Source: Desulfosudis oleivorans
GTDB lineage: Bacteria; Desulfobacterota; Desulfobacteria; Desulfobacterales; SURF-7
Length of the DNA stretch: 64,000 bases
NCBI GenBank assembly: GCA_020723325.1
Contig: DYJD01000002.1
Span: forward strand, 159,629-223,628
Direction of reading: 5' to 3'
Shown here: piece after piece, positions 2,566 through 62,536 of the stretch
Layout of the letters: each line of letters starts with the position of its first letter
How positions within the stretch are numbered: the stretch's first letter is position 1
The notes under the pieces: generated by a model
The model's input: only the letters and a program-made list of their open reading frames with translations
Told to the model about the DNA's origin: nothing
Databases searched by the model: none
Translations under genes and position numbers: made by a program

Positions 2566-4740
2566 ATGGTATCAAAAAGCAATCCGCACGCAACCGGAAC
2601 AAAAGCGCAATGGGTAACGAGCGTACGCTCGATTTTTCCCTCCATGGAGTCGTTGGCTGATTTTGAAAAAGATAATCCCGGAATGCTCGAGCTTTTCCTT
2701 CCGTTGCTCAAAAAGCGCGGGATCATTGCGAGCAACACCAAAGCGGACCTGGAAACAGTCCTTCAACCCCTTTCCGTGCCCAAGAACGGAAACGACGATC
2801 CCGGCGCGCACAGCTTTGAAGATTTCCTCCAAAACAACATCGGGCTTTCCCTCCATGAGCTGGCCAGCCGCCTCAATCAGTTGATCGAGCAATTCCAATT
2901 GCAGCCGCTTTTCAACCATAAGAAAATCGGGACCGCCATGTTTTCGCGACTCAAATCCATGCCGGCGGATACGACCGTGAAACGAAATTATCTGCGCATC
3001 CTTGCCTTTTATATGGGCTGGCACCAAGGGGAGCCGGGTTTGAAATTTCATTATGAAAAACTGCTGGATTTATGCGCATCCGGACCTGTTGAAAAAGGCT
3101 CCCATGGGATAAGGATCGGTTTCAGCATCGATGTCATCGATATCAATGCTTTTAATCTGCTCCGCAAAACGCTCAAAACCTGCCTGGACCGAACCCCCTC
3201 CCTGGGCAAGCTCAAGATCATTACCTTGCATCTGGAGTCCATGTTCGCTGTCTATATCGATATTCCCAACGCCCTCACCAGTGACCGCATTTCCGATGTA
3301 AGCCCTTACCGGGCAGGCATCCGGGATGCGGTTGCCCTTGCCCATCAGCTCCTGATCAAATGGCAGCTCTCCCCCAGAAAGCACTTTACCCAGCCCAACC
3401 TGACCATCGGCATCATGGCCGGTAAATTTTCAGAACTTACCCATTTGCGCCAATTATTAAGTTCCAAACATCAAACCGACTATCCGCAAATCAAGCTCAC
3501 CAAGTTCACCAAAAAATGCTTGAATGAAAACAATGTGCGTGCCACCCTCAGCAGAATCCCGGACATCATTCAGATTCCCAATGAACTTCCCATCTATATC
3601 TGGACCGTGGAAGGGGTCTGGAGCTGGATCTACCTCCAATTCCCCCATGACCTGATACAAAAGCCCGAGGATGAAGCCCTGGAATCCATTTGTCTCCCCA
3701 ATCAATACCGCCCTGCCAAAGTCAACAGCACCTTTAAAACCGCTGTCCAACGTTTTTACCAAAACACCCAAAATGCCTTGCTGGGTATGGAGCTCGCCAA
3801 AGCGTTTTATTACCGTAAAGATTATGCCGAAGCCCTGGAGGTGCTCAATACCATTTTGCGGGAGGACCCCCAGCAGTTGAACGCCTTGACATTGAAAATG
3901 ACCATTCTGTTCACCCTGGCGGCTTCCGCCGATGATCCGGAAAGATCGGAGTTGCAGTTCGAAAGAGCCGAAGATATTGCCATGCGCATCCTGCAGATGG
4001 AATTCTGCCATGAAGAAGATGCTTTTACGGAAATCGGTATGGGCCGTCTGGGCAGGGCTGTGGTTTTCCTGCGCCGCTGCCGGCATGTCGCCCTGGAAAG
4101 CACCCAGGGGCGGAAGATCGTTACGGAAGAGCAGAAGCAGTTGCTGATCGGCTTGATCCGCCGGGCGGAAAAAGCATTCATTAGAGGCACCAATTCCGCC
4201 AATACCGGCCATCGCTCCCTGTACTATCTTCTGCTCACGCGGCTCCTGCTGGAACTCCTGCGCTCGGAAAAATACCGGTTCACTTCGGCAGGCATTCAAC
4301 TTGAGGACCCCTTGCTTTTTCAAACAACGGCTCTGCGCCTGTTCCAGGACTTCGGCTGGCTGCCGGACCCTGTTCCCGGAAACGGTTTCAGCAGCATTGA
4401 AAAACCGTTGATGGACGCCATTCATTCCTTTGGCGATTCAGTGCAGTTGCAGTCCTATAAAGCCAATACCTTTATCGTTTTTTCCTTTTTACTGCATGAC
4501 TTTGAACTCAACCTACAACCGACGCCGGAAAATCAAGCGCGCATAACTGCCTGGCTTGCGCAAGCGGCAACCTGGGCCGAAAAAAACAAGCTGGATGGGC
4601 TCTACATTTACACGGATACGCGACGTTGGTACGGCGAGTTGCTTACCTACGATGAATTCAAGCAGCATTTGAATATGCTTATGAATATTGTTCGCGACCA
4701 AAAAAATCAAAAACTACTATTGGCCGGCCTGTTCAACTGA
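2566..4740 (+). CDS. large hypothetical protein with C-terminal TPR-like/helical repeat region
   Basis: ORF 2488..4740. Preferred start is ATG 2566 after AAAGGGGG. It contains a TPR-like stretch (AKAFYYRKDYAEALEVLNTILREDPQQLNALTLKM). I recognise no catalytic motif. Confidence 0.6.
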   Translation: MVSKSNPHATGTKAQWVTSVRSIFPSMESLADFEKDNPGMLELFLPLLKKRGIIASNTKADLETVLQPLSVPKNGNDDPGAHSFEDFLQNNIGLSLHELASRLNQLIEQFQLQPLFNHKKIGTAMFSRLKSMPADTTVKRNYLRILAFYMGWHQGEPGLKFHYEKLLDLCASGPVEKGSHGIRIGFSIDVIDINAFNLLRKTLKTCLDRTPSLGKLKIITLHLESMFAVYIDIPNALTSDRISDVSPYRAGIRDAVALAHQLLIKWQLSPRKHFTQPNLTIGIMAGKFSELTHLRQLLSSKHQTDYPQIKLTKFTKKCLNENNVRATLSRIPDIIQIPNELPIYIWTVEGVWSWIYLQFPHDLIQKPEDEALESICLPNQYRPAKVNSTFKTAVQRFYQNTQNALLGMELAKAFYYRKDYAEALEVLNTILREDPQQLNALTLKMTILFTLAASADDPERSELQFERAEDIAMRILQMEFCHEEDAFTEIGMGRLGRAVVFLRRCRHVALESTQGRKIVTEEQKQLLIGLIRRAEKAFIRGTNSANTGHRSLYYLLLTRLLLELLRSEKYRFTSAGIQLEDPLLFQTTALRLFQDFGWLPDPVPGNGFSSIEKPLMDAIHSFGDSVQLQSYKANTFIVFSFLLHDFELNLQPTPENQARITAWLAQAATWAEKNKLDGLYIYTDTRRWYGELLTYDEFKQHLNMLMNIVRDQKNQKLLLAGLFN

Positions 4741-4768
4741 CCTTTTTCGATACCGATTAAGAAAGGTC
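4739..4768. terminator. putative bidirectional hairpin between convergent genes
   Basis: GACCTTT (4739-4745) pairs with AAAGGTC (4762-4768) and is followed by TTTATT. It sits between the stop at 4740 (+) and the stop at 4773 (-). Confidence 0.45.
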
Positions 4769-4772
4769 TTTA

Positions 4773-6926
4773 TTAAACGCGATTACCCAGGGGTGACTTA
4801 AGGGTCTCCTGAATCTTGGCGGCAAACTCCCCGACCTTGATGGGTTTTAACAGAAAATCCCGGATGCCGAATTCAAGGGCCTTTTCCCTGGTGATGCTTT
4901 CACTGTTGCCGGTGCACAACAGGATGGGCACATCCGGCCGCACTTGCAGCAATTTTTGCGCCAGGTCGACACCGCTCATTTGGGGCATGGTCATGTCGGT
5001 GATGACCAAATCAAATCCCTCCGGGTCCGAGCAAAAGATGTTGAGGGCCTGATCCGGATTGGTGATTGTAACCGCCTGGTAGCCCAACCGGCTAAGCATG
5101 GCTTCACCGAATTCCGCCAACATTTCTTCGTCGTCCACGAACAGAATCCGCTGGTTTTTTCCCAACAGCAAGGGCTGGGGGGCCAGTTTTTGTGTTTCCA
5201 CGGGCGGTTCCATTACGGGAAGAAAAATGGAAAAGCAGGTCCCTTGACCGGGTCTGCTCTCAACCGTGATCAGACCGTTATAACTTTGGACAAGGCCGTG
5301 AACCACGGATAATCCCAAACCGGTTCCCACACCTTTTTGCTTGGTGGAAAAATACGGCTCAAAAATACGCTCCAGCACTTCCGGCGGCATGCCCGCACCG
5401 GAATCGGCGATGGTGAGTTTGGCCCATGACCCGTTGGTCAGCTCGGGCACAGGGGCTGTTTGCCCAGGGGGAATATCCAGTCCTTCAAGAAGGATTTCGA
5501 TGAGGCCGCCGTCGGACCCCATGGCCTGGTGGGCGTTGGTGAGCAGATTCATCAGGATCTGATGGATGTGTACCGGATCCGCCAGCACCCATAGAGGCAC
5601 GGGCGTCATATCCCGCCGGATTTCCACATGGCCGGGTAAAGATCCTTTCAACAATTCCATGATTTCAGCGATGACGACCTGAAGGCAGACCGGTTGATGT
5701 TCCGCCCTGATCTCACGACTGACCAGGAGGATATGACGGATCAGCTCCTTGGCCCGCAAGCAGGCGGCAACGATGCTGTTCAGGCTTTGCTTTTCGGCTT
5801 TATCGGCGGCCATGTCCAGGCTCAGCAACTCCGCATGGCCCATGATGGCCGACAGGATATTGTTGAAGTCATGGGCGATGCCGCCGGCCATGGTGCCGAT
5901 GGCTTCCATGCGCTGGGACTGGCGCAATTTCATTTCCATCTGTTTTTGCCCGGTCAGGTCTATCAAAACCGCCACTCCGCCGATCATCCGGCCCTGATCA
6001 TTAATAATGCCCGCGGCTGAAAAGGAAACCGGTTTTTTCTGGCTTTTTTTATCTATAAGACAGATTTCGGCGTTGATGATTTTTTCGCCTTTTTGAATAC
6101 GCGTGATGAAATCCCGGGCCATGTGTTTATCGGATTCAGGCAGCAAATAGTTTGCAGCCACCTCCCCCAGGCTTTTTCCCAGAAAATCGATTTCCGTTTT
6201 TCCGACCCAGTCAAGAAAGACAGGGTTGATATAATGGAATTGCACCTTTTCATCGAATAACAAAATGCCGCTGGGAAGGCTGGCCAGGCTGCTCTGCAAA
6301 AAGGCCTTGGCAGCAGCAGTTGCTTCTTCCGCCCGGCGCCGTTCTTGAATATCATGTTGCGCTTTTTTCAAGGCGCGCTGATTGATGGAGAAAAAACTGT
6401 AAGAGGTCAAGCCGACAATCAGCATGGCAGTCAAATTATCCGCCCAATAATCCATGACTGCCACCCTGGATAATCCCAGCCTGTATCCATATAAAAACAT
6501 GAAACCGGTCAGAATTGCCGCATTGGCTGTAAAATAAACGATGAGGGCCCGCTTGCCGGTGGTCACCAAGGGAGTCACGCTCAGCACGGCAAAGATAAAA
6601 ACAATGGTGTCCAGTCTGATTAAAGGATCGCTGTGATCAAAAAAAATGACCAGCCAGGCTGCAATCGTACCGATGATGAGGATCAAGTTGCCTGAAATGG
6701 CGAAATGTCCTTTGACCAGCAGCCACAAGGCAAAGACGATGACCAGGGTCGCAATGATAGTCGGCGCCAGAACACCCGGCGCCGTGGTTTCCGTATAAAT
6801 AATCGTGTAGCCGATGGCCATGGGCAGGATGATCAGCATCGCCAGCCCGAGAAGGAGCACGACCCGTGCTTTCTGCTGCAGGATGAAATCCGCTTGATCA
6901 TATTTTTTGAGAAGGCGGTTCAGCAT
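4773..6926 (-). CDS. hybrid sensor histidine kinase/response regulator (multi-TM N-terminus, PAS, HisKA, HATPase_c, REC)
   Basis: 717 aa. About six N-terminal TM helices. H-box [21 protein letters not shown]. ATPase G-boxes DSGAGMPPEV and GVGTGLGLSVVHG. C-terminal receiver ILFVDDEE..DLVITDMTMPQMSG..LCTG. Confidence 0.9.
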   Translation of the reverse strand: MLNRLLKKYDQADFILQQKARVVLLLGLAMLIILPMAIGYTIIYTETTAPGVLAPTIIATLVIVFALWLLVKGHFAISGNLILIIGTIAAWLVIFFDHSDPLIRLDTIVFIFAVLSVTPLVTTGKRALIVYFTANAAILTGFMFLYGYRLGLSRVAVMDYWADNLTAMLIVGLTSYSFFSINQRALKKAQHDIQERRRAEEATAAAKAFLQSSLASLPSGILLFDEKVQFHYINPVFLDWVGKTEIDFLGKSLGEVAANYLLPESDKHMARDFITRIQKGEKIINAEICLIDKKSQKKPVSFSAAGIINDQGRMIGGVAVLIDLTGQKQMEMKLRQSQRMEAIGTMAGGIAHDFNNILSAIMGHAELLSLDMAADKAEKQSLNSIVAACLRAKELIRHILLVSREIRAEHQPVCLQVVIAEIMELLKGSLPGHVEIRRDMTPVPLWVLADPVHIHQILMNLLTNAHQAMGSDGGLIEILLEGLDIPPGQTAPVPELTNGSWAKLTIADSGAGMPPEVLERIFEPYFSTKQKGVGTGLGLSVVHGLVQSYNGLITVESRPGQGTCFSIFLPVMEPPVETQKLAPQPLLLGKNQRILFVDDEEMLAEFGEAMLSRLGYQAVTITNPDQALNIFCSDPEGFDLVITDMTMPQMSGVDLAQKLLQVRPDVPILLCTGNSESITREKALEFGIRDFLLKPIKVGEFAAKIQETLKSPLGNRV

Positions 6927-7051: not shown

Positions 7052-7079
7052 CAGAATCCAGGAGTCAGAATTCAGAATA
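7052..7079 (+). repeat. heptamer tandem array (CAGAATC CAGGAGT CAGAATT CAGAATA)
   Basis: Four phase-exact 7-mers read directly. A degenerate REP copy (AGGAGCGGCTTCCAGCAGAGATGC) follows at 7132-7155. Confidence 0.7.
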
Positions 7080-7194
7080 GCATGGGAATAAGCCTCGGGC
7101 AATTTACCGATTTTCGGTCAACCTCCATAGCAGGAGCGGCTTCCAGCAGAGATGCAGTAGGGCATAGCTCACAACTTTTCTTGTACTTGGATGT

Positions 7195-9911: not shown

Positions 9912-10745
9912 ATGCAGGCCAGGTCGGAAGGCCTGCGCCGACAAGGCAAGACCATTGTTTTTGTGCCCACCATGGGTTTTCTGCATGCCGGGCATGCCGC
10001 GCTGTTGCAGGAAGGCCGGGCCTTGGGGGATGATCTGGTGCTGAGCATATTCGTGAATCCCACCCAGTTCGGACCGACCGAAGATTTTGAAGCCTATCCG
10101 CGGGACATGGAACGGGATCTTGCCTTGGCCGCCCAGGCCGGCGTGGATGCGGTTTTTACACCCGATCGATCCGAGCTGTACGGAAATGATTATGAGACTT
10201 ATGTGCAACTGGAAAAGCTGCCCCAGCATTTATGCGGCCTTTCCCGGCCCACCCATTTCCGGGGGGTGGCCACGGTGGTCACCAAGCTGTTCCATATCGT
10301 CAAGCCCCATATCGCTGTTTTCGGGCAAAAGGACTATCAACAACTGGCCGTCATCCGCCGCATGGTTCGCGACCTGAATTTTGATATCGAGATCCGGGGG
10401 CTGGCCACGGTGCGGGAAGCGGACGGGCTGGCCATGAGCTCCCGGAACACCTATCTTTCACCTGCCCAGCGCCAAAGGGCCGTCTGCCTCTATCAGGCAT
10501 TGACCAATGCCGCTGAAATGGTTAAGAACGGAGAAAGATCCGCGGCAACGGTCATGGCAGCGGCCCGCAATCTGATTTCAGCCCAGGCGGAAGCCCGTAT
10601 CGATTACATTTCCATTTGCCATCCGGATTCCCTGGAAGAAATGGAAAACATCGCGGGCCCCGCACTCATGGCCCTGGCGGTTTTTTTCGGAAAAACCCGT
10701 TTGATCGACAATATGATATTGAAACCGGAAAAGGGTGCCGGCTGA
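9912..10745 (+). CDS. panC: pantoate--beta-alanine ligase
   Basis: [19 protein letters not shown] (HIGH-type motif), VNPTQFGP and GLAMSSRN. The true start may lie upstream at a near-cognate codon (see findings). Confidence 0.9.
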
Positions 10746-11956: not shown

Positions 11957-11963
11957 AGATATA

Positions 11964-11986
11964 GGCTGAAGACTGAAAGGCTGAAG
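11964..11986 (+). repeat. GCTGAAG-type heptamer array immediately after the metK stop
   Basis: GGCTGAA GACTGAA AGGCTGAAG, beginning 8 nt after the TAA stop. Confidence 0.7.
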
Positions 11987-12159: not shown

Positions 12160-12207
12160 TATCCGTTCCCGATACCGACCCCGAAAAAAGCTACATACAA
12201 TCCCCCT
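12160..12207 (+). repeat. solo right arm of the hexamer-arm element (GATACCGACCCCGAAAAAAGCTACATACAATCCCC)
   Basis: It matches the right termini of the elements at 34031-34083 and 62317-62380 (..GACCCCGAAAAACCACATGCGATTGCC). Confidence 0.6.
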
Positions 12208-14648: not shown

Positions 14649-14662
14649 CGTAATCGCCATAC

Positions 14663-14709
14663 GATGCAATATGGGATCGGGGTTACGGGATACTAGATGC
14701 AAGATACGT
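14663..14709 (+). repeat. GAT-phased heptamer array after the ahcY stop
   Basis: GAT triplets at 14675, 14689, 14696 and 14703 are spaced in multiples of 7 (GATCGGG GTTACGG GATACTA GATGCAA GATACGT). Confidence 0.6.
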
Positions 14710-14913
14710 GTACAGACCGGATTGCACCTGGACCACCGATCCCTTGTTCATGATGGTCGGGGCTGAATACTGCTTCGATTACAACTACTATCTGGGAGCA
14801 TCCCAGAAAATGACAAGCATCAAGGAGGCCGTGGTCTGGCCGGCGAAATATTCATCGTGAGGAGATCGTGATTGATAACACGACTAATTATTCAAATTAA
14901 ATGATTATTTATT

Positions 14914-15276
14914 GTGGAAACATTGAACAAAACCATCAAAAGCTTCGTAAAAAAAAGAATTAATTGGAAATGGATCCGTTGCCTGACATTAGTAGCATCA
15001 TTTTTTAGTATAGGATTAATGGTTTTTTTTGTGAATGCTATCAACAAAGTTAATACCGCAGAAGTTTATCTCGTTAATAATTTTAATATTGATGCAGTAC
15101 AGCAATATATAGATTGCAGAATAGTGTACTCACAGCTAAAAGTAAAGGCACTCATTTTCGGTATTATTTCTGGAGGTATTGGATTTTCAATGTTAATTCT
15201 TACTTTAGCAAAATGGAATAATCATTCATATACTACTAGCAAATCTGGGTTGGATCAAAAAAAAACAGAGGAATAA
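14914..15276 (+). CDS. hypothetical two-TM membrane protein (AT-rich insert)
   Basis: GTG-initiated 120-aa ORF in a markedly AT-rich stretch. It has two hydrophobic helices and no family motif. Its 3' end overlaps the decayed nuclease gene. Confidence 0.35.
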   Translation: METLNKTIKSFVKKRINWKWIRCLTLVASFFSIGLMVFFVNAINKVNTAEVYLVNNFNIDAVQQYIDCRIVYSQLKVKALIFGIISGGIGFSMLILTLAKWNNHSYTTSKSGLDQKKTEE

Positions 15277-15823
15277 AACTCGCAGCGTCCGGTGGTCGGC
15301 TGGTCGTGCCAGCACTAAGTGGTGAGTTGACCTTTGCCTCCATCGGGACGAGCGCGAGATGGCTGCTCCATGCCGAGGCGTCGAACTGCGTGTTGCCTTC
15401 TCTCGTCGAGAGTGACGGTGGCGGTGAGACGCTTGTCCAGAAATCGAGCCGGACGGCACCGTCCGGGATCTCCGCGATCAAGGCCTCGTTCACTGCCCTC
15501 TTCAAGCCATTCTCAAGCACCCGACGGAACCACCCATGTGGACCGCGACGTTCCATCGTCCTCAACGAACTCCATGTTGCGGCGTCCTCAGAGTTGGCCG
15601 ATGCCAGGCGAGGCACGTTCCCGTATAGGTTTTGAAACGATCCGATTCCGCCTTCCTGATAAGGTCGGGGTGGTGTCGATCCTCTTCGAGGACGATCATG
15701 CGATCCCCGTACTTGAGGAAGACCGGGACCGCTCCCGGCTTCAAGATCCCGACACCGTCGTCAAGCAGGATCCTCTCGCCGTCCCACTGGAACCGCGGTT
15801 TCTCCAAAGGTGAGAGACGTCAT
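15236..15823 (-). pseudogene. frameshifted PD-(D/E)XK nuclease-like gene remnant
   Basis: Three consecutive minus-strand frames join to one reading: MTSLTFG|EKPRFQWDGERILLDDG..DRFKTYTGT|..ANSEDAATWSSLRTMERRG..TQFDASAWSSHLALVPMEAKVNSP. SEDAxTW and D..EAK resemble restriction-endonuclease-like families. At least two frameshifts are needed, near 15805 and 15600. Confidence 0.45.
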
Positions 15824-15899
15824 GCCGTGCGCCTCTTGAAAGACGGCAACGATAAGTGCGCTGTACTGCAAATAGGTCTCGCAAATCAGAACAGCCTCA

Positions 15900-16187
15900 T
15901 TAGGCGAAAGCGCGGACCTGACGCTTGATTTTGTCAGCACCTCGCATTGCCTGCCAAAGATCATACTGCGCCTGCTGCATGATCCAGCTTTCAGCACTGC
16001 CACCGAACGCCGCTGACAATCGTATTGCCATTTCTGGCGATATTCCTCGGCGGCCATTTAACAACTCAGACAACGACGAGCGTGATACGCCTAAGCCTTT
16101 GGCCGCCTCGGTGACCGACAACCCTAAAGGTTCTATACAAAATTCCCGAACGGCTTCTCCGGGGTGTGGTGGATTATGCATAACCAT
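15900..16187 (-). CDS. higA: HigA-family antitoxin (XRE-type HTH)
   Basis: [55 protein letters not shown] is the classic HigA/VapI HTH. It lies 11 nt downstream of higB. Confidence 0.85.
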
Positions 16188-16198
16188 AATGTTGCTCC

Positions 16199-16477
16199 TT
16201 AATGGTAATCCAAATAATCTACGTCTATGGCATGGCCGTTATCAAACCGGAATATAACCCGCCAGTTGCCGGATACAGACACGCTCCAAAAGCCTTTTAA
16301 TGAACCTTTCAACGGATGCAGTTCAAGACCGGGAAGGTTCATATCCTCGATGGCGGCACAGGCATCAAGCCTTGCCAATATCAAACGAAGCCTGGCGGCA
16401 TGTTCCGGCTTAACGCCTTGCTTGCTTCCCGTCTCATAAAGTTTCTTCAGCCCCTTGTGCTTGAAGTTTTTAATCAT
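16199..16477 (-). CDS. higB: HigB-type toxin (RelE/ParE superfamily, killer protein)
   Basis: 92 aa: [43 protein letters not shown]. The order is toxin first, antitoxin second. Confidence 0.85.
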
Positions 16478-16482
16478 AACCT

Positions 16483-16511
16483 ATTGTAGCCAGTAGCGCG
16501 ACACATGTCAA
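16483..16511 (-). promoter_or_regulatory. sigma70-like promoter of higBA (near-leaderless)
   Basis: On the minus strand: TTGACA (16511-16506), 17-nt spacer, TACAAT (16488-16483), with only 5 nt between the -10 and the ATG at 16477. The 11-bp direct repeat ATGTCAATCTG occurs at 16505-16515 and 16551-16561. Confidence 0.5.
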
Positions 16512-16588
16512 TCTGTTTTTTAATAAGTCCGTTGAAATCAGATGTCAATCTGAGACGGATCTGAGTCCTAAGGGAGCTTGAAAATTTT

Positions 16589-16738
16589 AATTTACCGTTT
16601 TAGTCAATGTCGTGCTCGTGCTCGTGCTCAGCGAAGCGGTACTCGTAATCGAACGGCAAATTTGAATAACACATAAGGAGCCGATTACGAGTACGAGTAC
16701 GAGCACGAGCACGAGCACGAGCACAAAAACGGTAAATT
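16589..16738. repeat. 150-bp hairpin element with (GAGCAC)n/(GAGTAC)n hexamer arms
   Basis: Left arm AATTTACCGTTTT..GTCGTGCTCGTGCTCGTGCTC..GTACTCGTAATCG. Right arm CGATTACGAGTACGAGTACGAGCACGAGCACGAGCACGAGCACAAAAACGGTAAATT. The termini are exact reverse complements. Confidence 0.8.
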
Positions 16739-16783
16739 GGATTTTCCCACATCCCTAGGGACAATGACACGAAAAAGCCTAAC

Positions 16784-16915
16784 ATCCATATCCCGTATCT
16801 ATCCTTTCTTATTTCGCCCCCGATCCCGTTAGCTTTCCCGTATCTTCAGTATCTTCTCTCGACCCCGATACCGATAGCGACCCCGACCCCGATGGTCTCC
16901 CCGCAACCCGCATCC
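16784..16915 (-). repeat. composite heptamer/hexamer element, C-rich orientation (copy 1)
   Basis: ATC-phased heptamers flank GACCCCGATACCGATAGCGACCCCGACCCCGA (16861-16892). The architecture matches 19392-19535 and is the reverse of 18481-18600. Confidence 0.75.
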
Positions 16916-17021
16916 CCTTCCTAATCCGGATTGACTTCCCCCCATAAGCACTTATTTTCAAGTAAATGTTCCATGACGATTGCTGCTGGAATGCTGGTCG
17001 GTTACAAAAGGAGGTGTGATC

Positions 17022-18482
17022 ATGGAAGCGCTGATTAAATTTGAAGAAGTTCAAAAACAAAAAAGCCAGAACGAGCAACTTGAATATCTGGATCGTATAT
17101 TTGCCGCGCAACAAGCCGCCTTTGCCAAAAACCCCATGCCCGGCGCTGATGAACGCATCCGGCTGCTTACTTCTCTGAAACAGGCCCTGCTGAATCATCG
17201 TGAGGCCATCATCGAGGCCATTGACCAGGATTTCGGCGGCCGATCCCGGGATGAAACCTTGCTGGCCGAGATCCTGCCCAGTGTGGAGGGTATCCGCTAT
17301 GCTGTCAAAAATGTCAAAAAATGGATGAAGCCGGCCCGGCGTAAGACCGGCTTAATTTTCCAACCTGCCAAGGTCGGCGTGATTTACCAGCCCCTGGGCG
17401 TGGTGGGCATTATTGTGCCCTGGAATTATCCGGTTTACCTGGCGCTGGGACCTTTGACCTATGCCCTGGCGGCCGGCAACCGCGCCATGATCAAAATGAG
17501 CGAGTTTACCCCTCGCACTGCGGCTGTGATGAAAAAACTGCTGTACAATGCTTTTGAAGAGGAGCAGGTGGCTGTTGTAACCGGCGAAGCCGAAGTGGGG
17601 GCCGCTTTTTCCCAGAAGCCCTGGGATCACCTGCTGTTCACCGGCTCCACCACCGTGGGAAGGCATGTCATGCGGGCCGCGGCGGACAACCTCACCCCCG
17701 TGACCTTGGAACTGGGTGGCAAATCACCGGCCATCATCGGCCCGGATATCCCCTTGAAGGATGCGGCCGAGCGCATCGCCTTCGGCAAGGCTCTCAATGC
17801 GGGCCAGACCTGTGTGGCTCCGGATTATGTCCTGTGCCCCCGCAGCCGCTTGGATGCTTTTGTGGAGGAGTTCAGGGCCGCCTTTAGTCGGATGCATCCG
17901 CAGGTCAAAAACAGCCCCCATTACACCGCCGTGGTGAACCAGCGCCAGCATGAACGTCTGCTGGCCTTGCTCAAGGACGCGGAAACCAAAGGCGCCCGCA
18001 TCGTCAAGCTCGACCCGCCCGCCGAAGATTTCAACATCAACCGCAAAATGCCCATCCATTTACTGATGGGCGTGAACGAATCCATGCGGGTCATGCAGGA
18101 GGAGATCTTCGGCCCGTTGTTGCCCATAATCCCCTACGACACCCTTAAGGATGCCGTGACTTACGTGAATGAGCATCCCCGGCCCCTGGCCCTGTATTAT
18201 TTTGATTACAACCGCGAAAACACGGATTATGTTCTTTCCCGGACCGTTTCCGGCGGCGCGATAGTCAACGACACCCTGGCCCACGTGGCCCAGGACGACT
18301 TGCCCTTTGGCGGCGTCGGACCCTCCGGCATGGGCCAATACCACGGCCATGAAGGCTTCCTGACCTTTTCAAAAGCCAAGGGCGTGATGTACCAGCGGGC
18401 CTTCAACACCACCCGTTTCATCTATCCGCCCTATGGCCGGTTGATCCATCGGTTGATTTATTGGTTGTTTTTAAGAAATTGA
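17022..18482 (+). CDS. NAD(P)-dependent aldehyde dehydrogenase (coniferyl-aldehyde-DH-like subfamily)
   Basis: ATG 17022 after AAAGGAGG. Motifs: LELGGKSP (catalytic Glu), NAGQTCVAPDY (catalytic Cys), EEIFGPLLP and FGGVGPSGMGQYHG. Confidence 0.9.
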   Translation: MEALIKFEEVQKQKSQNEQLEYLDRIFAAQQAAFAKNPMPGADERIRLLTSLKQALLNHREAIIEAIDQDFGGRSRDETLLAEILPSVEGIRYAVKNVKKWMKPARRKTGLIFQPAKVGVIYQPLGVVGIIVPWNYPVYLALGPLTYALAAGNRAMIKMSEFTPRTAAVMKKLLYNAFEEEQVAVVTGEAEVGAAFSQKPWDHLLFTGSTTVGRHVMRAAADNLTPVTLELGGKSPAIIGPDIPLKDAAERIAFGKALNAGQTCVAPDYVLCPRSRLDAFVEEFRAAFSRMHPQVKNSPHYTAVVNQRQHERLLALLKDAETKGARIVKLDPPAEDFNINRKMPIHLLMGVNESMRVMQEEIFGPLLPIIPYDTLKDAVTYVNEHPRPLALYYFDYNRENTDYVLSRTVSGGAIVNDTLAHVAQDDLPFGGVGPSGMGQYHGHEGFLTFSKAKGVMYQRAFNTTRFIYPPYGRLIHRLIYWLFLRN

Positions 18483-18600
18483 TGCGGGATACGAGATCCG
18501 TGATGCGAGATGCGCGGGATTCATCGGGGTCGGGGTCGCTATCGGTATCGGGGTCGAATGCGGGATGCGAGTTACGGGATACGAGATCTGGGATAGTAAA
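18481..18600 (+). repeat. composite heptamer/hexamer element, G-rich orientation (copy 2)
   Basis: GATGCGG GATACGA GATCCGT GATGCGA GATGCGC (18481-18515), then TCGGGGTCGGGGTCGCTATCGGTATCGGGGTCG (18524-18556), then AATGCGG GATGCGA GTTACGG GATACGA GATCTGG GATAG (18557-18596). The first heptamer contains the aldehyde dehydrogenase TGA stop. Confidence 0.8.
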
Positions 18601-18610
18601 CTCAAATCGC

Positions 18611-19375
18611 ATGGAGAAAACATGTCAGACCGATATGGAATCTAAAAAAGAATTTCACCAAACAGATTATATTTTTCGCCCCATTGGTTTCATCCGCTCC
18701 TGCTTCAAGGAGAAATTCGGCATTCCGCGCCAGCCCGGACTGCTTGAGGCCGCCACTGGCCAGCTTGTCCTGTTGCCGCCATATAACAGCAAGGAGGCCG
18801 TGCGCGCCCTGGAGGAGTTCTCCCATGTCTGGATCGTGTTCGTGTTTCACGCCCTGGCGCCGCCCAAACAAAAGACCACTGTGCGCCCCCCGCGCCTGGG
18901 GGGCAACCGCCGCCTGGGTGTGTTCGCCACCCGTTCCGGCTTCCGGCCCAACCCCATCGGTCTTTCCGTGGTGAAATTGGAGCGGATTTCCCATGGCAAT
19001 GCAGGCTGCACCCTGCATTTGAAAGGCCTCGATCTGTTGGACGGCACACCGGTGCTGGATGTCAAACCCTATCTGCCCTATACCGACTGCTTAACCACCG
19101 CCGCCGGTGGTTTTGCCCAGGAGGCACCGTGCGACCGGAACCCATTGCCGGTGGAATTCGATTCGCCTGCTCTCGAATACTGCCTGGCCAGGGAAGCCGC
19201 CGATCTCCCCGGCCTGCGGGCCTTCATCACCGCCATGCTCACCAGCGACCCCCGGCCGGCTTATTACAAAAAAACCTCCCGCCGGAAACGATTCGGTGTC
19301 AAGGTTTTTGATCTGGAAGTCAAATGGGAGGTTGCGGATGAGCAGATACGAGTTACGGAGGTTTATAGAGTATAA
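18611..19375 (+). CDS. trmO: tRNA (t6A37-N6)-methyltransferase TrmO (YaeB family)
   Basis: IGFIRSCFKEKFGIPRQPG, RPPRLGGN..GVFATRSGFRPNPIG and LLDGTPVLDVKPYLPYTD. The N-terminal part of ORF 18461 is repeat-derived, so the start is taken at ATG 18611. Confidence 0.85.
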   Translation: MEKTCQTDMESKKEFHQTDYIFRPIGFIRSCFKEKFGIPRQPGLLEAATGQLVLLPPYNSKEAVRALEEFSHVWIVFVFHALAPPKQKTTVRPPRLGGNRRLGVFATRSGFRPNPIGLSVVKLERISHGNAGCTLHLKGLDLLDGTPVLDVKPYLPYTDCLTTAAGGFAQEAPCDRNPLPVEFDSPALEYCLAREAADLPGLRAFITAMLTSDPRPAYYKKTSRRKRFGVKVFDLEVKWEVADEQIRVTEVYRV

Positions 19376-19391
19376 GGCAATGAATTCCTTG

Positions 19392-19535
19392 TTTCCCGCA
19401 TCTCGTCTCTCGTATCCCGAATCCTTTATCTCATTTCTACCGCCGACCCCGATACCGATAGCGACCCCGACCCCGACAAACTCGCCCGTATCTCGCATCA
19501 CGAATCTCGTATCCAGTAACCCATATCCCGCATCC
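19392..19535 (-). repeat. composite heptamer/hexamer element, C-rich orientation (copy 3)
   Basis: Its reverse complement aligns along its length with 18481-18600, including CGACCCCGATACCGATAGCGACCCCGACCCCGA at 19446-19478. Confidence 0.8.
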
Positions 19536-19546
19536 TGAAAAAAAGC

Positions 19547-19575
19547 TTGCATTCATAGACGACCGGTCGTATATT
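19547..19575 (+). promoter_or_regulatory. sigma70-like promoter with embedded 12-bp perfect palindrome (probable TetR operator)
   Basis: TTGCAT (19547-19552), 17-nt spacer, TATATT (19570-19575). ACGACCGGTCGT (19559-19570) is a perfect palindrome. The ATG at 19583 lies 7 nt after the -10. Confidence 0.55.
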
Positions 19576-19582
19576 TAACCCC

Positions 19583-20170
19583 ATGTCACGACCGCGACGC
19601 AGCGAGCATTTACGGGAAGACCTTTTGGAACGGGGCATTGAACTGCTCTCGGAATCCGGCTATCACGGCACGGGCCTGCAGCAGATCCTGGGCGCGGTGA
19701 ACATTCCCAAGGGCTCTTTTTACAATTATTTCCAAAGCAAGGAACAGTTTGTGGCCGAGGTCATCACGCGCTACAATCAAAAGATCGAGGAGCAGTTGGA
19801 CCGCTACTTGATCCAAACCAAGGATGATCCCGTAACCGCCATCCGCAATATCCACGCCTACATGATCAAACTTTTGGAAAAGGACCCCAAAGGGTGCTTG
19901 ATCGGCAATCTTTCCGCGGAAATCGGCAATGCCAGCAACGAATGCCGGATCGCCATGCAGCACGGCATGCAGGCCTGGAAACGGCGGTTTGAAAAATTAA
20001 TGCAAGCGGCCCAGTCCAAGCGCCTGCTGCGCCGGGATGTCCCAGCCGCGACCCTGGCCGATATCCTCTGGAACACCTGGCAGGGCGGCTTGCTGCGCAT
20101 GAAAATCGAAGGCAATACCATGCATTTGAAGCAAACACTAGAAGTTTTGTTGGATGTGCTTTTCCGGTAA
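19583..20170 (+). CDS. TetR/AcrR-family transcriptional regulator
   Basis: N-terminal HTH GYHGTGLQQILGAVNIPKGSFYNYFQSKEQF. 195 aa, the typical length. Confidence 0.85.
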   Translation: MSRPRRSEHLREDLLERGIELLSESGYHGTGLQQILGAVNIPKGSFYNYFQSKEQFVAEVITRYNQKIEEQLDRYLIQTKDDPVTAIRNIHAYMIKLLEKDPKGCLIGNLSAEIGNASNECRIAMQHGMQAWKRRFEKLMQAAQSKRLLRRDVPAATLADILWNTWQGGLLRMKIEGNTMHLKQTLEVLLDVLFR

Positions 20171-31744: not shown

Positions 31745-31833
31745 AAGCGGGCAGCCATTCGCCAGCAGGACGGGTCCGGGCGTCCCGCCGGTGGGTAGGG
31801 GCGGTTCACGAACCGCCCCTACGGCAAGGCCAT
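31745..31833 (+). repeat. partial copy of the composite element core with 28-bp palindrome
   Basis: GTAGGGGCGGTTCACGAACCGCCCCTAC (31795-31822) plus GGCAAGGCCAT. The upstream ~50 nt align with 33876-33920 of the full copy. Confidence 0.7.
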
Positions 31834-33536: not shown

Positions 33537-33770
33537 CGTGCTTGTATGCCCAACGAAAAGTTTGGGTGAGGCCAAATGCGAATAACCGTGAACTTCAAAA
33601 AGATATATAATTTTAAATATCTAATCCCGTAAGGTCAAAATACTATTTACCCCATTTGCACCGCCGAATCAACCGGTTGTGATGAAAACAACAGGGGAAT
33701 CGCATGTAAACTTGGCGCGGAATGTGCCTCCAATAATTACCAACATTTTATCCAGCGAATACCATTGTCC

Positions 33771-34083
33771 GCCAAGACAAAGCGATTCGTGGGTGCTTGG
33801 GTTTTGTCTCTGCCATCCAACCTCTCGGGGTCGGGGTCGGTATCGGAATCGGTATCGAGTTTTTTCTTTTCCCCCAAAGGCAATTCGCCAACGGGACGGA
33901 ACGGTGTGCCCTGCCGATATGTAGGGGCGGTTCGCGAACCGCCCTTACGGCAAGGCCATTGTGTTGGGTCTTGGGGTCAGCAGTGAAAACGGCCCTGGTT
34001 TTTCAGAGTCAGGGGAGCTCAAATATTTTTTCGATCCCGATGCCGATAGCGACCCCGACCCCGAAAAACCACATGCGATTGCC
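33771..34083 (+). repeat. 313-bp composite hairpin element, full copy A
   Basis: Left arm TCGGGGTCGGGGTCGGTATCGGAATCGGTATCGA (33826-33857). Core with palindrome GTAGGGGCGGTTCGCGAACCGCCCTTAC (33921-33948). Right arm TCGATCCCGATGCCGATAGCGACCCCGACCCCGA (34031-34064). Terminus ACATGCGATTGCC. It aligns end-to-end with the reverse complement of 50951-51266. Confidence 0.85.
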
Positions 34084-34242
34084 CCAATGAAAACAAAACG
34101 AAAACCATCCGTTTCGAATATTTTGCTGCGATAATAGCACTGCGACTTCCAACCGCGATCCGGCCGAAACGATGACCAAGGCCAAACAGCATTTAGGCAG
34201 CCGAATACGAGCACGAAAAACGGATACTTAAATTTCTTCATA

Positions 34243-40474: not shown

Positions 40475-41182
40475 ATGGAAGCCATTATCAGTGAACAATT
40501 GCAGAACCATTTTGAAATCGCCACGGCCAACCGCAGCCGCATGTATGCCGTCATCGCCGAGATCTTCCGGTATCCGGCTGCGGATTTCCGCAAGCAGGCC
40601 CGCAACGGCGACCTGGAACAAGCTCTGCGCCGCCTCACCGACAACCTGCCCTATCCTTTTGAATGGAGCGAGACGGAAAAAAAGAACCTGCGCGCCGTTG
40701 CCCGGGTCCCGGATGAGGACCTGGAGGTGGAATTCATCCGCCTGTTCGAAGCCGGTCCTGGTCAGCCGCCCCTGCCCTTGCTGGAAGGACTGTTCCGGGA
40801 AGACCGCCAGGCGATTTTCAAGGAACTCATCCTGTTCTACAACCATTTCGGCCTGAGCTATGCCGAGGGCAGCATGGAAGACCGGCCCGACCATCTTTGC
40901 TACCAGGTGGAATTCCTGCATTTCCTGGTTTTCAAGGAACTCAAGGCCTTGCAGGCCGGCCGTGACCAAGGCCCCTATCTGCGAGCCCAAAAGGATTTTC
41001 TGGAACGCCATCCCCTGCCCTGGCTGGACCTGCTGCTGGCCAAAGTCAGTCAGATGGAACAAAAACTCCCGCCACCGGAAGAAGCCTGCCTGGAAGTGTT
41101 CCACTTCTATGCAGCCCTGCTTTCACTAACACACCGGTTTTTACATGCGGAAGGACGGTATCTTGGGGGATGCGGGATATGA
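40475..41182 (+). CDS. TorD/NarJ-family redox-enzyme maturation chaperone (delta subunit)
   Basis: Motifs RSRMYAVIAEIFRYP, EVEFIRLFE.GPG and PDHLCYQVEFLHFL are DmsD/NarJ-like. The start lies 4 nt after the beta stop. Its last codons and stop fall inside a heptamer array. Confidence 0.75.
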   Translation: MEAIISEQLQNHFEIATANRSRMYAVIAEIFRYPAADFRKQARNGDLEQALRRLTDNLPYPFEWSETEKKNLRAVARVPDEDLEVEFIRLFEAGPGQPPLPLLEGLFREDRQAIFKELILFYNHFGLSYAEGSMEDRPDHLCYQVEFLHFLVFKELKALQAGRDQGPYLRAQKDFLERHPLPWLDLLLAKVSQMEQKLPPPEEACLEVFHFYAALLSLTHRFLHAEGRYLGGCGI

Positions 41183-41210
41183 GATATACGATATGGGATG
41201 TGGGATAAGG
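41169..41210 (+). repeat. six phase-exact GAT-heptamers forming the delta/cytochrome b intercistronic spacer
   Basis: GATGCGG GATATGA GATATAC GATATGG GATGTGG GATAAGG, with GAT at 41169 and every 7 nt thereafter. The TGA stop of the chaperone gene is at 41180-41182. GATAAGGAAAAG sits just upstream of the ATG at 41222. Confidence 0.85.
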
Positions 41211-41221
41211 AAAAGACCTGA

Positions 41222-50855: not shown

Positions 50856-50877
50856 ACAGGGGCCTTAACCTTCATTT

Positions 50878-51320
50878 CAGCAGCATCGCGGCTGGAAGCC
50901 GCTCCCACTGCGGCGGGAATACCCAAGGCGTAAACGTGATCTCCATGCATGGCAATCGCATGTAGTTTTTTTCGGGGTCGGGGTCGGTATCAGGATCGGT
51001 ATCGAAAAATAATTTGATGGCCCCCGCTCCTGAAAAACCAGCTCGTTTTCCCTGCTGACCCCAAGACCCAACACCATGGACTTTCCGTTGGGGCGGTTCG
51101 CGAACCGCCCCTGCACATCGGCAGGGCGCCCCATCCCGTCCCGTTGGCGAATTGCCTTTGGGGAGTAAAAAAAAACTCGATACCGATTCCGATGCCGACC
51201 CCGACCCCGAGAGGTTGGATGGCAGAGACAAAACCCAAGCATTCACGAATCGCTTTGTGGCCTTGGTCATCATTTCGGTCATCCTCCACGGTGGGAGCGG
51301 CTTCCAGCCGCGATGCGGCC
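50878..51320 (-). repeat. nested palindromic element: REP inverted arms enclosing composite element copy B (50951-51266)
   Basis: Outer arms GCATCGCGGCTGGAAGCCGCTCCCAC (50883-50908) and its reverse complement (51291-51316). The inner 316-bp copy is the reverse complement of 33771-34083 and carries the palindrome GGGGCGGTTCGCGAACCGCCCC (51090-51111). Confidence 0.85.
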
Positions 51321-51441
51321 GAAACTATGATCAAGTTCCGTTTTGTCTTGGCGGGCAATAGTATTGGCTGGGTGAAATGTTGGCAATTAATGTCTGCACA
51401 TTCCACGCCAAGTTTACATGCGATTCCCCTGAATTTCTCTG

Positions 51442-62147: not shown

Positions 62148-62180
62148 ATGTTCCTTATCTTCGGACGATGATGTCATCAA

Positions 62181-62380
62181 GGGAATTGCATGCGTTTTTT
62201 CGGGGTCGGTATCGGGGTCGGAATCGGTATCGAATTCAATCCCCTTTTTCAATACACCAAGAAGGCAAGTGGTTCATGACAGCAAGCGCCTTGACTTGTC
62301 TAAACGATTACCATTTCGACCCCGATACCGATAGCGACCCCGACCCCGACCCCGACCCCGAAAACCAAATGCGATTGCCC
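62181..62380. repeat. 200-bp hexamer-arm hairpin element with a (GACCCC)4 run
   Basis: Left arm GGGAATTGCATGCGTTTTTTCGGGGTCGGTATCGGGGTCGGAATCGGTATCGA. Right arm TCGACCCCGATACCGATAGCGACCCCGACCCCGACCCCGACCCCGAAAACCAAATGCGATTGCCC. The core differs from copies A and B. Confidence 0.85.
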
Positions 62381-62536
62381 TGGGAATGTCGTATGATCCA
62401 GTTGACCTGACTATTTTTTATAGTGTAAGATAGGTATTAAGTCAACCGTTCCATTGCTGCTTTTCAGTGTCAAAACAGGATGGTATTCAAAAACAGGCAA
62501 CCCATTTTTTCAATGATATTCTGGAATCAATAAAAT

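Follow-up and report, generated by a model that had tools for sequence, protein, structure and literature searches.

For 16S and 23S rRNA, complementary sequences 1-3 kb apart close the unit into a loop, and RNase III cuts the stem. In Coxiella, the terminal inverted repeats of the 23S rRNA intervening sequence (IVS) form a 28-bp stem that RNase III cuts; its loop carries an S23p ORF, and tandem GACAGAT heptamers, variable in number, lie between the stem and the ATG (PMC4990558). ORF-bearing 23S rRNA IVS of this kind (Leptospira, Coxiella, Brucella, Xanthomonas) are deemed selfish and horizontally moved, with an unknown origin, and how rRNA intervening sequences arose and spread has been an open question for more than 30 years (PMC4990558). 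Here, we analysed a 64-kb stretch of DNA from Desulfosudis oleivorans (hereafter the window), in which three copies of a composite repeat surround an aldehyde dehydrogenase gene (ALDH) and trmO. We think it probable, with some reservation, that these copies are stray arms of an IVS-like cassette inserted into an ancestral operon, and that the second and third copies may form a putative RNase III substrate around trmO.

The sequence-only reading of this locus had described three composite repeats in the orientations C-rich, G-rich and C-rich. This is confirmed by an exact 33-nt core, CGACCCCGATACCGATAGCGACCCCGACCCCGA, shared by all three (Table), and by the identity over some 110 aligned nucleotides, which is 76% between copy 1 and the reverse complement of copy 2, 84% between the latter and copy 3, and 79% between copies 1 and 3. 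It was also right that copy 2 aligns with the reverse complement of copy 3 and that each of the two genes, ALDH and trmO, has long inverted repeats on its two sides; the longest exact inverted match is 36 nt for copies 1 and 2 and 33 nt for copies 2 and 3. Dinucleotide shuffles give 0 expected matches to the 33-mer core, against 5 in the window. Each core is flanked on both sides by 7-nt phased units (CNCGNAT, or GATNCGN on the other strand). These flanks are degenerate arrays, and a set of four heptamers beside the core is kept in the same order only in copies 2 and 3. Copy 2 begins inside the ALDH stop codon and ends 10 nt 5' of the trmO ATG. Rfam gave no match at gathering thresholds in the window or at 26 loci, and none at E<=1 within 16400-19700. 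The core sequence was not found in the literature searched, and searches on the protein family names discussed below returned nothing describing such arms.

Table. Repeats, genes and neighbouring features of the window (positions counted from its first nucleotide).
Feature	Position	Strand	Context
Copy 1, C-rich: heptamer array, core 16860-16892, heptamer array	16784..16925	+	between divergent higBA promoter region and ALDH promoter
Copy 2, G-rich on + strand: core 18524-18556	18481..18600	-	fills 128-nt ALDH-trmO spacer
Copy 3, C-rich: core 19444-19476	19392..19535	+	between trmO stop and TetR-family gene
ALDH, coniferyl-aldehyde-dehydrogenase type, PF00171	17022..18482	+	ancestral at position
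trmO (tRNA m6t6A37 methyltransferase), PF01980+PF18389	18611..19375	+	ancestral; in predicted RNA, inside copy 2:copy 3 duplex
ALDH promoter-like site, TTGACT-16-TATTTT	16931..16958	+	downstream of copy 1
Heptamer array, NNGRGAT type, G-orientation, without hexamer core	14660..14712	-	directly after AdoHcyase stop
Inserted island, not in relatives	14713..16783	.	AT-rich membrane ORF, HigA, HigB, hexamer hairpin
HigA	15900-16187	-	in inserted island
HigB	16199-16477	-	in inserted island
TCGTGC/GAGCAC hexamer hairpin	16565-16762		in inserted island
Solo C-arm, A-run, outer motif GCTACATACAATCCCCC	12163..12207	+	between metK and ArsR-methyltransferase gene
Hairpin-type element: G-arm 33825-33857, 174-nt loop, C-arm 34032-34064, A-run, outer motif ACATGCGATTGCC	33692..34095	.	
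Second copy of the 33692..34095 element, inverted orientation: G-arm 50972-51005, C-arm 51177-51210	50930..51431	.	
Hairpin-type element: G-arm 62197-62232, 84-nt loop, C-arm 62317-62361	62176..62381	.	
G-orientation heptamer array (GGGATNN), without hexamer core	41167..41207	-	15 nt upstream of cytochrome b gene start (41222)

Two relatives (L098 and L100) keep the order MTase-AdoHcyase-ALDH-TrmO in a compact form, with the ALDH stop overlapping the trmO start (ATGA), and such arrays are absent from 21 kb of their sequence. Here an array stands at every junction of the syntenic block, from the solo C-arm at its left-hand end to copy 3 at its right-hand end, and in a closer relative (L143) an (ACGGGAT)n run directly follows the ALDH stop. 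Protein identities to the relatives fit vertical descent, and horizontal replacement of trmO was rejected, as its identity to the relatives rises and falls with the identities of ALDH and AdoHcyase. The comparison indicates that ALDH and trmO are ancestral and that the repeats are the newcomers, which bears out the earlier view that neither gene is mobile cargo; the synteny check proposed with that view does find the genes without the repeats. The heptamer array after AdoHcyase is the left border of a 2.3-kb insertion of which copy 1 is the other end; its pairing with copy 1 is weak (-47 vs -37+-4 kcal/mol) and was not retained. Proteins identical to ALDH and TrmO occur in SRR13164373; they are recorded only on Logan contigs, 1686 and 943 nt long, that end inside the repeats. 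Short-read assemblies break at these repeats.

The three copies are not alone in the window. The exact 33-nt core recurs at 62317, a core with 2 mismatches lies at 34032, and related hexamer arms start at 12163, 33825, 50972, 51177 and 62197; further, period-7 arrays are found at 7052-7078, 18481-18514, 41174-41207 and 55680-55711. All 12 arrays fall within the 10.5% of the window that is non-coding. Three elements are of hairpin type and the hairpin units fold at -63 to -72 kcal/mol; the one holding the exact 33-mer in its C-arm is flanked by GGGAATTGCATGCG and CAAATGCGATTGCCC, and a different small repeat is nested at about 51259-51338 inside another. Beyond this genome, the core was found in at least 8 phyla. 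The 148 core sites in public contigs comprise 56 hairpins, 16 sites with the cassette gene described below or a remnant of it, 52 solo arms and 23 sites at contig ends, and hairpins with a loop of at most 60 nt account for 39 core sites. The heptamer sequences vary between phyla while the core is constant, and the outer inverted flanks are genome-specific. Viral contigs hold 0 matches to the 21-mer, and there is thus no evidence for a phage vehicle.

The likely source of the core is seen at five related loci (L021, L052, L115, L144 and L148), where intact ORFs beside it match PF05635 and TIGR02436, i.e. the 23S rRNA intervening-sequence protein (Pfam 23S_rRNA_IVP), a four-helix bundle. In these intact units, the 5'UTR contains a G-rich hexamer arm 12-20 nt ahead of the start codon. 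The four-helix-bundle gene comes next, and the acidic Asp-X tail of its own protein (...DPDTDSDPDTD...) is encoded by the C-rich arm, read as ...IDPDTDSDPDTD...; the window core translates as DPDTDSDPDP. Hence, the 6-nt period corresponds to two codons and the G-arm to their antisense copy. A (D/E-x)>=4 tail occurs in 117 of the 120 nearest homologue clusters and the pattern D-x-D-x-D-x-D-x-D in 96 of them. In 40 cases the G-arm precedes the C-arm and in 2 it follows it, a polarity that fits an origin of the arms from the 5'UTR and the 3' codons. The full-length unit encodes the four-helix-bundle protein only, with no recognisable transposase, and at one locus (L148) a 48-nt direct repeat flanks the unit. 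L144 and L148 hint that spread may proceed by recombination or duplication. On the strength of the shared core, gene-less hairpins and solo arms appear to be derivatives of the intact cassette. Searches by tblastn found no four-helix-bundle gene or remnant in the 64-kb window (nothing better than E=0.5), nor any remnant in the 84-174-nt loops of its three hairpin units, so that for this genome the derivation rests on the identity of the core sequence and not on a local intact element.

The idea that the three copies form a dedicated gene-bracketing device did not hold: they are members of a genome-wide, cross-phylum repeat family. With consecutive arms no more than 300 nt apart, 72 pairs run from G to C. 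At gene scale (601-4000 nt) there are 13 C-to-G, 5 G-G, 5 C-C and 1 G-to-C pairs, and the last is the trmO case, the sole one of the 24 in which a host gene is enclosed by a G-to-C pair. General bracketing was therefore rejected, such enclosure being exceptional, and that of trmO by a G-arm and a C-arm could be fortuitous, with a probability of about 1/4 given two solo arms.

Stems of more than 100 nt had been proposed around each cistron, and this stands in prediction for trmO and probably not for ALDH. The minimum-free-energy fold of 16965-19560 has 105 pairs between copies 2 and 3, enclosing trmO; their duplex is predicted at -174 kcal/mol, compared with -77+-6 for shuffles, and the interval from copy 2 to trmO has no promoter-like site. 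The ALDH promoter-like site, whose TTGACTT is conserved in L098 and L143, lies downstream of copy 1, so that this copy is probably untranscribed and outside the ALDH mRNA, and a stem around ALDH is unlikely. Were copy 1 transcribed, copy 2 would still be predicted to pair with copy 3 (102 pairs) over copy 1 (6). By analogy with IVS excision, the stem of copies 2 and 3 in the predicted ALDH-trmO transcript is a plausible substrate of RNase III.

Put together, these observations suggest the following course of events. The 33-nt core would be a terminal arm of an IVS-like selfish cassette that spreads horizontally, and copies 1-3 would have arisen by recent duplication, in one orientation or the other, of a composite of some 110-140 nt. 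Such arms, set in heptamer arrays, would have been inserted at the junctions of the ancestral MTase-AdoHcyase-ALDH-trmO cluster, and would persist only where no gene is broken. Copy 2 would be co-transcribed with ALDH and trmO and, together with copy 3, might form a duplex of some 105 bp, interrupted and with a perfect core of 33 bp, closing trmO into a loop. RNase III may then cut this duplex, as it does in IVS excision and in the 16S and 23S processing stems, and the cleavage would uncouple trmO from ALDH.

The same data can be read in other ways. The repeats might be of REP/REPIN or MITE type, moved in trans by a transposase whose gene lies elsewhere in the genome, with the four-helix-bundle genes as a favoured insertion neighbourhood and RNA pairing of no consequence. 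The family is indeed dispersed and strictly intergenic, with inverted arms and short loops at 56 of the 148 sites, genome-specific outer flanks reminiscent of MITE terminal repeats, a different small repeat nested in one element, and assemblies that break at its members. The arms also show no covariation: a unit's own arms match at 0.66 of the variable positions, compared with 0.71 for arms taken from different loci, and pair at -1.58 vs -1.66 kcal/mol per nt. Own arms being no more complementary than cross-locus ones, covariation was rejected as evidence for a selected stem, and the stem seems generic, not tuned for each unit. Yet, a single arm is not a palindrome; its hexamers and heptamers are direct repeats, and the C-form copies, 142-151 nt in length, reach no more than -10 to -13 kcal/mol when folded alone. 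Nor would this explanation account for a C-arm that is in frame as a conserved protein tail, or for the strict G-to-C polarity. No transposase was found among the neighbours examined, in particular no RAYT (Y1 transposase) gene among the annotated ones over the 64 kb of genome covered, and the single filled/empty comparison available (copy 2 against L098 and L100) shows no clear target-site duplication. We regard this explanation as rather unlikely. Binding platforms for a putative post-transcriptional regulator of CsrA, S1 or Csp type, acting on GGGAU/GAGAU heptamers near start codons with an incidental hexamer core, would fit the G-orientation arrays that end just before the trmO and cytochrome b start codons, as well as the frequency of heptamer arrays at gene ends in the window; in Beggiatoaceae, comparable TAACTGA heptamers that precede start codons have been proposed as binding sites of such regulators (PMC4679880). 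This is improbable to us, because in copies 1 and 3 the sense strand shows the complementary, C-rich form, and the heptamers are degenerate and differ between phyla while the core does not.

RecA-dependent inversion of ALDH or trmO was among the proposals made from the sequence. For an inversion switch, RecA-dependent or site-specific, that changes their expression, the exact inverted tracts and the wider identity between copies might speak; flipping 18557-19443 would disconnect trmO from the ALDH promoter. Yet, these tracts are barely above the minimum length for homologous recombination established from E. coli, and no recombinase or invertase gene occurs among the annotated neighbours in the window. 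Moreover, the ALDH promoter-like site is inside the segment between copies 1 and 2, so that inversion would carry the promoter along with the gene without separating them, and the same arms stand at hundreds of places with no enclosed gene. An invertible switch is thus very improbable. We give still less credence to small peptides encoded by the repeats, which would consist of Arg-X repeats (G strand) or Asp-X repeats (C strand). Open frames do run through several arms (e.g. MAIACSFFRGRGRYQDRYRKII at 50942), and in intact cassettes the Asp frame does code for protein, but the A-run between arm and outer motif is 4, 5 or 7 nt long, which shifts the frame between copies, and the heptamer flanks are not multiples of three. 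On these grounds peptide coding by the window copies was rejected; there is no conserved start codon or ribosome-binding site either, and copies 1-3 have no such ORF intact, bar extensions of real genes.

The IVS-like arm reading of the locus invites a much broader conjecture, which we put forward with considerable doubt. IVS-type cassettes might be a free-living selfish element spread across phyla and not confined to rRNA, with a 5'UTR antisense to its own Asp-X tail codons, so that host read-through transcripts would fold the cistron into a loop excisable by RNase III; its arms would have seeded thousands of hairpins and solo copies, and here two of them would have put trmO in the place of the cassette gene. 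If the pairing and cleavage at trmO are true, rRNA-like excision would have been imposed on an mRNA and a formerly translationally coupled operon uncoupled. The open question on the rRNA elements would also gain material, as members of the same gene family, with inverted arms and heptamers, are located between ordinary genes of no fewer than 8 phyla, together with hundreds of solo arms and of hairpins lacking the gene that the family has left behind. The 21-33-nt core provides a sequence handle to trace the element and its filled and empty sites, and makes it testable whether RNase III excision from host transcripts belongs to the element's lifestyle. For annotation, it would account for a class of intergenic hexamer and heptamer repeats at which, in Desulfobacterota, the PVC group and Chromatiaceae, short-read assemblies break and synteny breakpoints fall.

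How, then, does this family stand among known systems? The elements have inverted ends, and they differ from MITEs in that the full-length unit carries a four-helix-bundle gene in place of one for a transposase. Like REP/REPIN sequences with their RAYT, they are short, intergenic, highly repeated and typically between operon genes, and like them they form hairpins as inverted doublets with short spacers, singlets being decayed forms (PMC3116915). A REP unit is, however, a small lineage-specific palindrome (PMC3116915), whereas the arm here is a non-palindromic hexamer array, present as the same 21-33-mer across phyla and associated with a gene other than that of a Y1 transposase. The cyanobacterial STRR and the TAACTGA repeats of Beggiatoaceae are, as the arrays of the window, tandem 7-nt intergenic units, often a few nucleotides ahead of a start codon or right behind a stop codon, patchy across phyla and of unknown mechanism (PMC4679880). 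They differ from the arrays here, whose units are degenerate (NNGRGAT) and surround a conserved hexamer core, and which occur in both orientations and pair with each other.

The rRNA processing stems offer the parallel of distant complementary sequences that enclose a whole functional unit, yet those are conserved parts of the rRNA operon, whereas here recently inserted repeats surround an mRNA cistron and cleavage is predicted. The closest likeness is with the 23S rRNA IVS themselves, in which terminal inverted repeats of some 28-35 bp close a loop that contains a PF05635 four-helix-bundle ORF, and tandem heptamers stand between the 5' stem and the ATG. In the window, the perfect 33-bp core within the 105 predicted pairs of copies 2 and 3 is in the range of such stems (about 20-30 bp or more), whereas the PF05635/TIGR02436 ORF is missing here and present at the five related loci. 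Unlike the rRNA elements, those described here lie between protein-coding genes and not in helix 9, 25 or 45 of the 23S rRNA; the cassette arms are hexamer-phased, with a 3' arm made of Asp-X tail codons, and the cassettes have given rise to many solo arms and hairpins without a gene. All that the window contains are derivatives of this kind, one pair of which encloses a host gene.

The three composite repeats at the aldehyde dehydrogenase (ALDH) and trmO genes are real and far from chance. Each holds an exact copy of the 33-mer core CGACCCCGATACCGATAGCGACCCCGACCCCGA, to which dinucleotide-preserving shuffles gave no match, and every core has on both sides units phased at 7 nt, of type CNCGNAT in one orientation. 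Over about 110 aligned nt, the reverse complement of copy 2 is 76% identical to copy 1 and 84% to copy 3, and copies 1 and 3 are 79% identical; the longest exact inverted tract is 36 nt for copies 1 and 2 and 33 nt for copies 2 and 3. Since four core-adjacent heptamers follow in identical order in copies 2 and 3, these are duplicates of one composite unit, not independent arrays. The sequence-only reading, in which three inverted repeats enclose two whole genes, thus described the locus correctly.

Positions of features in the window and, where named, in loci of other genomes
Feature	Position	Remarks
Copy 1, C-rich	16784-16925	core 16860-16892 (+)
Copy 2, G-rich	18481-18600	core 18524-18556 (-); ALDH-trmO junction, splits the former stop/start overlap
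Copy 3, C-rich	19392-19535	core 19444-19476 (+); right-hand breakpoint of the shared block
ALDH gene	17022-18482	
trmO	18611-19375	
Promoter-like site	16931-16958	TTGACT-16-TATTTT, just downstream of copy 1
2.3-kb island	between AdoHcyase and ALDH	membrane ORF, HigBA, another hexamer hairpin; borders are the 14660 array and copy 1
Core-less heptamer arrays	14660-14712; 41167-41207	type as around copies 1-3
Further core matches	62317; 34032	exact; two mismatches
Related hexamer arms	12163; 33825; 50972; 51177; 62197	TCGGGG, TCGGTA, TCGGAA types or complements; 12163 is a solo arm on the left side of the shared block
Second hexamer hairpin	16565-16762	outer inverted flanks 16565-16604 and 16723-16762
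GGGAGCGGCTTCCAGCCGCGATGC repeat	7112-7155; 48819-48875; 50861-50917; 51273-51344	about 45-60 nt, short palindrome
GTAGGGGCGGTTCGCGAACCGCCCCTAC palindrome repeat	31754-31833; 33880-33959; 51087-51112	
Other heptamer arrays	7052-7078; 11960-11985; 55680-55711	at gene ends
Mechanical ORF	33945-34241 (-)	
Coding-like intergenic stretches	10230-10615; 40645-41221	intergenic on a crude ORF map
Large ORF	45083-47662	
C-arm triplication, L144	3384-3720	also in L145
48-nt direct repeats, L148	2866-2915; 3417-3465	tcaaccagaaacaaactgaatggcaacgggcgtgtgcgcgggatggc
Tandem units, Kiritimatiellia	2960-3420 (L036); 4700-5100 (L029)	single orientation
In-frame TAA, L143	1795-1810	GGGACTAATCG

Relatives tell the genes from the repeats. 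Two of them, L098 and L100 (ALDH 76% and 72% identical), have the gene order of the window (ArsR-methyltransferase, AdoHcyase, ALDH, TrmO), with the trmO start overlapping the ALDH stop (ATGA), an AdoHcyase-ALDH gap of just 113 nt, and no hexamer or heptamer array across 21 kb. Hence the synteny comparison proposed in the sequence-only reading finds both genes without the repeats. These four genes are the only ones common to the window and these relatives, and in the window an array is present at every junction of the block. A closer relative, L143 (ALDH about 80% identical), carries (ACGGGAT)n immediately past the ALDH stop, where its contig stops, and is free of repeats ahead of the conserved promoter box TTGACTT. 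ALDH and trmO are ancestral and the repeats newcomers. We rejected an import of trmO from elsewhere because the identities between window and relatives (AdoHcyase 89%, ALDH 76%, TrmO 64%) scale as those between the two relatives (ALDH 80%, TrmO 74%). Short-read assemblies are interrupted within the repeats, and the exact ALDH and TrmO proteins are recorded solely on two contigs, 1686 and 943 nt long. In L143 an in-frame stop splits the ALDH gene call into products of 77 and 405 aa, which points to a pseudogene or to a fault in the assembly.

The copies belong to a family dispersed over the window. All 12 arrays lie inside the 10.5% that is non-coding on a crude gene map. Three sites hold hairpin-type units, bounded by a T/A run and the outer inverted motif GGCAATCGCATGT, in which 84-174 nt of loop separate the G-rich arm from the C-rich arm that follows it. 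The six solo arrays are oriented C, G, C, G, C, G; such perfect alternation (P about 0.03 if orientation were random) is suggestive but weak.

The window has other repeats too. The second hexamer hairpin has the architecture of the core hairpins with another unit, with arms of (TCGTGC)3-4 plus (GAGTAC/GAGCAC)6 and a loop of 57 nt; its right arm reads as Glu-Tyr/Glu-His repeats, so that the hairpin may represent a sister family to the Asp-X arms described below. In a Lentisphaerales locus (L002), CACGAAGAG-type arrays adjoin the core. One copy of the GGGAGCGGCTTCCAGCCGCGATGC repeat is nested within the hairpin element at 50930-51431, and the GTAGGGGCGGTTCGCGAACCGCCCCTAC repeat occurs in the loops of both large hairpin elements and once solo, on the 3' side of a gene ending at 31819. 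The other heptamer arrays are built of CAGAATN, of GGCTGAA immediately behind the metK stop codon, and of CCTTCAG, the complement of GGCTGAA, between convergent genes; this genome seems generally prone to carry short tandem arrays where genes begin or end. The mechanical ORF has a lipoprotein-like signal at its start (MKKFKYPFFVLVFGC...) and continues into a hairpin element, whose insertion may have truncated a gene start. The two coding-like stretches, the first resembling part of pantoate-beta-alanine ligase, may be frameshifted genes or pseudogenes. The large ORF has many internal repeats of 27-46 nt encoding ...NGGGGIYA/GGGVFA..., typical of a beta-helix repeat protein and unrelated to the copies.

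The core is widespread. Among GTDB representative genomes, at least 96 stretches contain its 21-mer CGATAGCGACCCCGACCCCGA, from Lentisphaerae/Victivallales, Verrucomicrobiota, Kiritimatiellia, Desulfobacteraceae, Desulfatiglandaceae and Desulfobulbaceae to Chromatiaceae (Thiohalocapsa, Thiorhodococcus), Calditrichaceae, Acidobacteriota and Binatia; the full 33-mer has matches in 41 JGI metagenome contigs and none among viral contigs. Flanks beyond the core are genome-specific. A census of 148 core sites gave 56 hairpins, 52 solo arms, 23 sites at contig ends and 16 with a gene or gene remnant, where the arms are 407-477 nt apart. The G-arm (G-rich hexamer array) lies at most 300 nt upstream of the C-arm (its C-rich counterpart) in 40 of 94 cases; the reverse order occurs just twice.

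What the arms belong to is seen in Thiohalocapsa, where the core forms an arm of a unit with an interior of about 430 nt that encodes a protein of Pfam PF05635 (23S rRNA intervening-sequence protein). Intact cassettes of this kind were found in Lentisphaerae (L021), a Thiorhodococcus isolate (L052), a metagenome (L115), a MAG (L144) and Verrucomicrobiota (L148). All five match PF05635, and both of those scanned against NCBIfam (L021, L052) match TIGR02436 (four helix bundle protein). Their layout does not vary: 12-20 nt lie between the G-arm and the ATG, and the protein opens M-G/A-F-G-H-E-K-L-D-V-Y. The C-arm is part of the ORF, at its 3' end, where it encodes an acidic tail, ...GIDPDTDSDPDTD... 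in L021, ...VDADADADADTN in L052 and ...FDPDTDTDADPDKKD in L086; given this Asp-X frame, the 6-nt period is a codon pair. The core of the window reads DPDTDSDPDP in the same frame. The G-arm is an antisense copy of these codons sited in the 5'UTR, and the strict G-to-C polarity fits such an origin from 5'UTR and 3' codons. Homologues of the protein number at least 5265 at E<=1e-20 among the matches listed, mostly on short contigs; in the nearest 120 clusters, 117 have a (D/E-x)>=4 tail and 96 have D-x-D-x-D-x-D-x-D. The cassettes of L052, L144 and L148 are on the strand of the upstream host gene. An Rfam scan of the window and the examined loci placed none in rRNA genes, and the window holds no four-helix-bundle gene or remnant.

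Derivatives suggest how arms become solitary. In L144 and L145, an intact cassette is followed by three tandem copies of the C-arm with about 77 nt of its 3' flank, which is a way to solo C-arms without transposition. The intact cassette of L148 stands between the 48-nt direct repeats, one upstream of the G-arm side and one directly after the C-arm; the upstream copy is preceded by a degenerate C-arm end (CCCCTCCGA), and CGCAGAGAT 9-mers lie downstream. The triplication and the direct repeat hint at duplication or recombination, not classical transposition. In each tandem Kiritimatiellia unit a hexamer block is joined to TTTGGATGAAACC, to an array of GAAACCN heptamers/octamers and to a terminator-like hairpin (AAAGAGCGTTG...CTCTTTTT); these units show the core-plus-heptamer architecture of the window with different heptamers. 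In a Verrucomicrobia MAG (CALLYA01), L013, L035, L057 and about 30 other loci carry an arm and only the first seven cassette codons (ATGGGATTCGGACACGAGAAA, MGFGHEK), then unrelated sequence; this high-copy family is an internally deleted and multiplied derivative.

Could the copies nevertheless act on the genes they enclose? The TTGACTT of the promoter-like site is kept in L098 and L143; the interval from copy 2 to trmO has no such site, nor does a terminator-like site separate trmO from copy 3. The transcript hence probably begins past copy 1 and spans ALDH, copy 2, trmO and copy 3. In its minimum-free-energy fold copy 2 pairs with copy 3 over 105 bp (18483:19518 to 18600:19392), and does so still when copy 1 is added (102 pairs versus 6); the duplex energies are -174 kcal/mol for copies 2 and 3, -146 for copies 1 and 2, and about -75+-6 for shuffles. 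The 2:3 duplex, with a perfect helix of 33 bp, is a predicted textbook RNase III substrate, and the read-through transcript would be cut there. The RNase III stems proposed in the sequence-only reading are thus plausible for trmO, where the order G-arm, heptamers, ATG and C-arm is that of the cassette and of 23S rRNA intervening sequences (IVS), and unlikely for ALDH, since copy 1 lies upstream of the promoter-like site and copy 2 prefers copy 3. The stem is generic and without the covariation sign of selection: complementarity within a unit is no higher than between arms taken from different loci. The trmO case is the single G-to-C pair among successive arms spaced at gene scale (against 13 C-to-G, five G-G and five C-C); enclosure of a host gene is an exception, and two solo insertions could yield the same by chance. 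The RecA-mediated inversion also proposed in the sequence-only reading is possible in principle, as an idea without support; no recombinase gene lies nearby.

Hence, the best reading of the repeats is as solo arms of a cross-phylum, IVS-like four-helix-bundle cassette family; these arms were duplicated recently, sit in heptamer arrays specific to the lineage and are tolerated only at the gene boundaries of a once-compact operon. The ALDH-trmO locus itself is ordinary repeat biology. The cassette family appears undescribed outside rRNA, and literature searches by core sequence and protein family names found no published description of the hexamer arms. Cyanobacterial STRR and, in Beggiatoaceae, the TAACTGA repeats (PMC4679880) are similar to the heptamer arrays. 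The hairpin derivatives are like REPINs (PMC3116915), but a single arm is not palindromic, and there is no sign of a RAYT. The best-studied relatives of the cassette units are the ORF-bearing 23S rRNA IVS. That of Coxiella, described as a selfish element whose origin and function are unclear, has 28-bp terminal inverted repeats forming a stem cut by RNase III, an S23p (four-helix-bundle) ORF in the loop, and three to four tandem GACAGAT heptamers, variable in number among strains, between the 5' stem and the ATG (PMC4990558). The cassette family is relevant to the long-standing problem of IVS origin: like IVS elements, its units have a gene of this family, a closing stem and heptamers close by, but they lie between ordinary genes, with hexamer-phased arms, a coding 3' arm and many gene-less derivatives.
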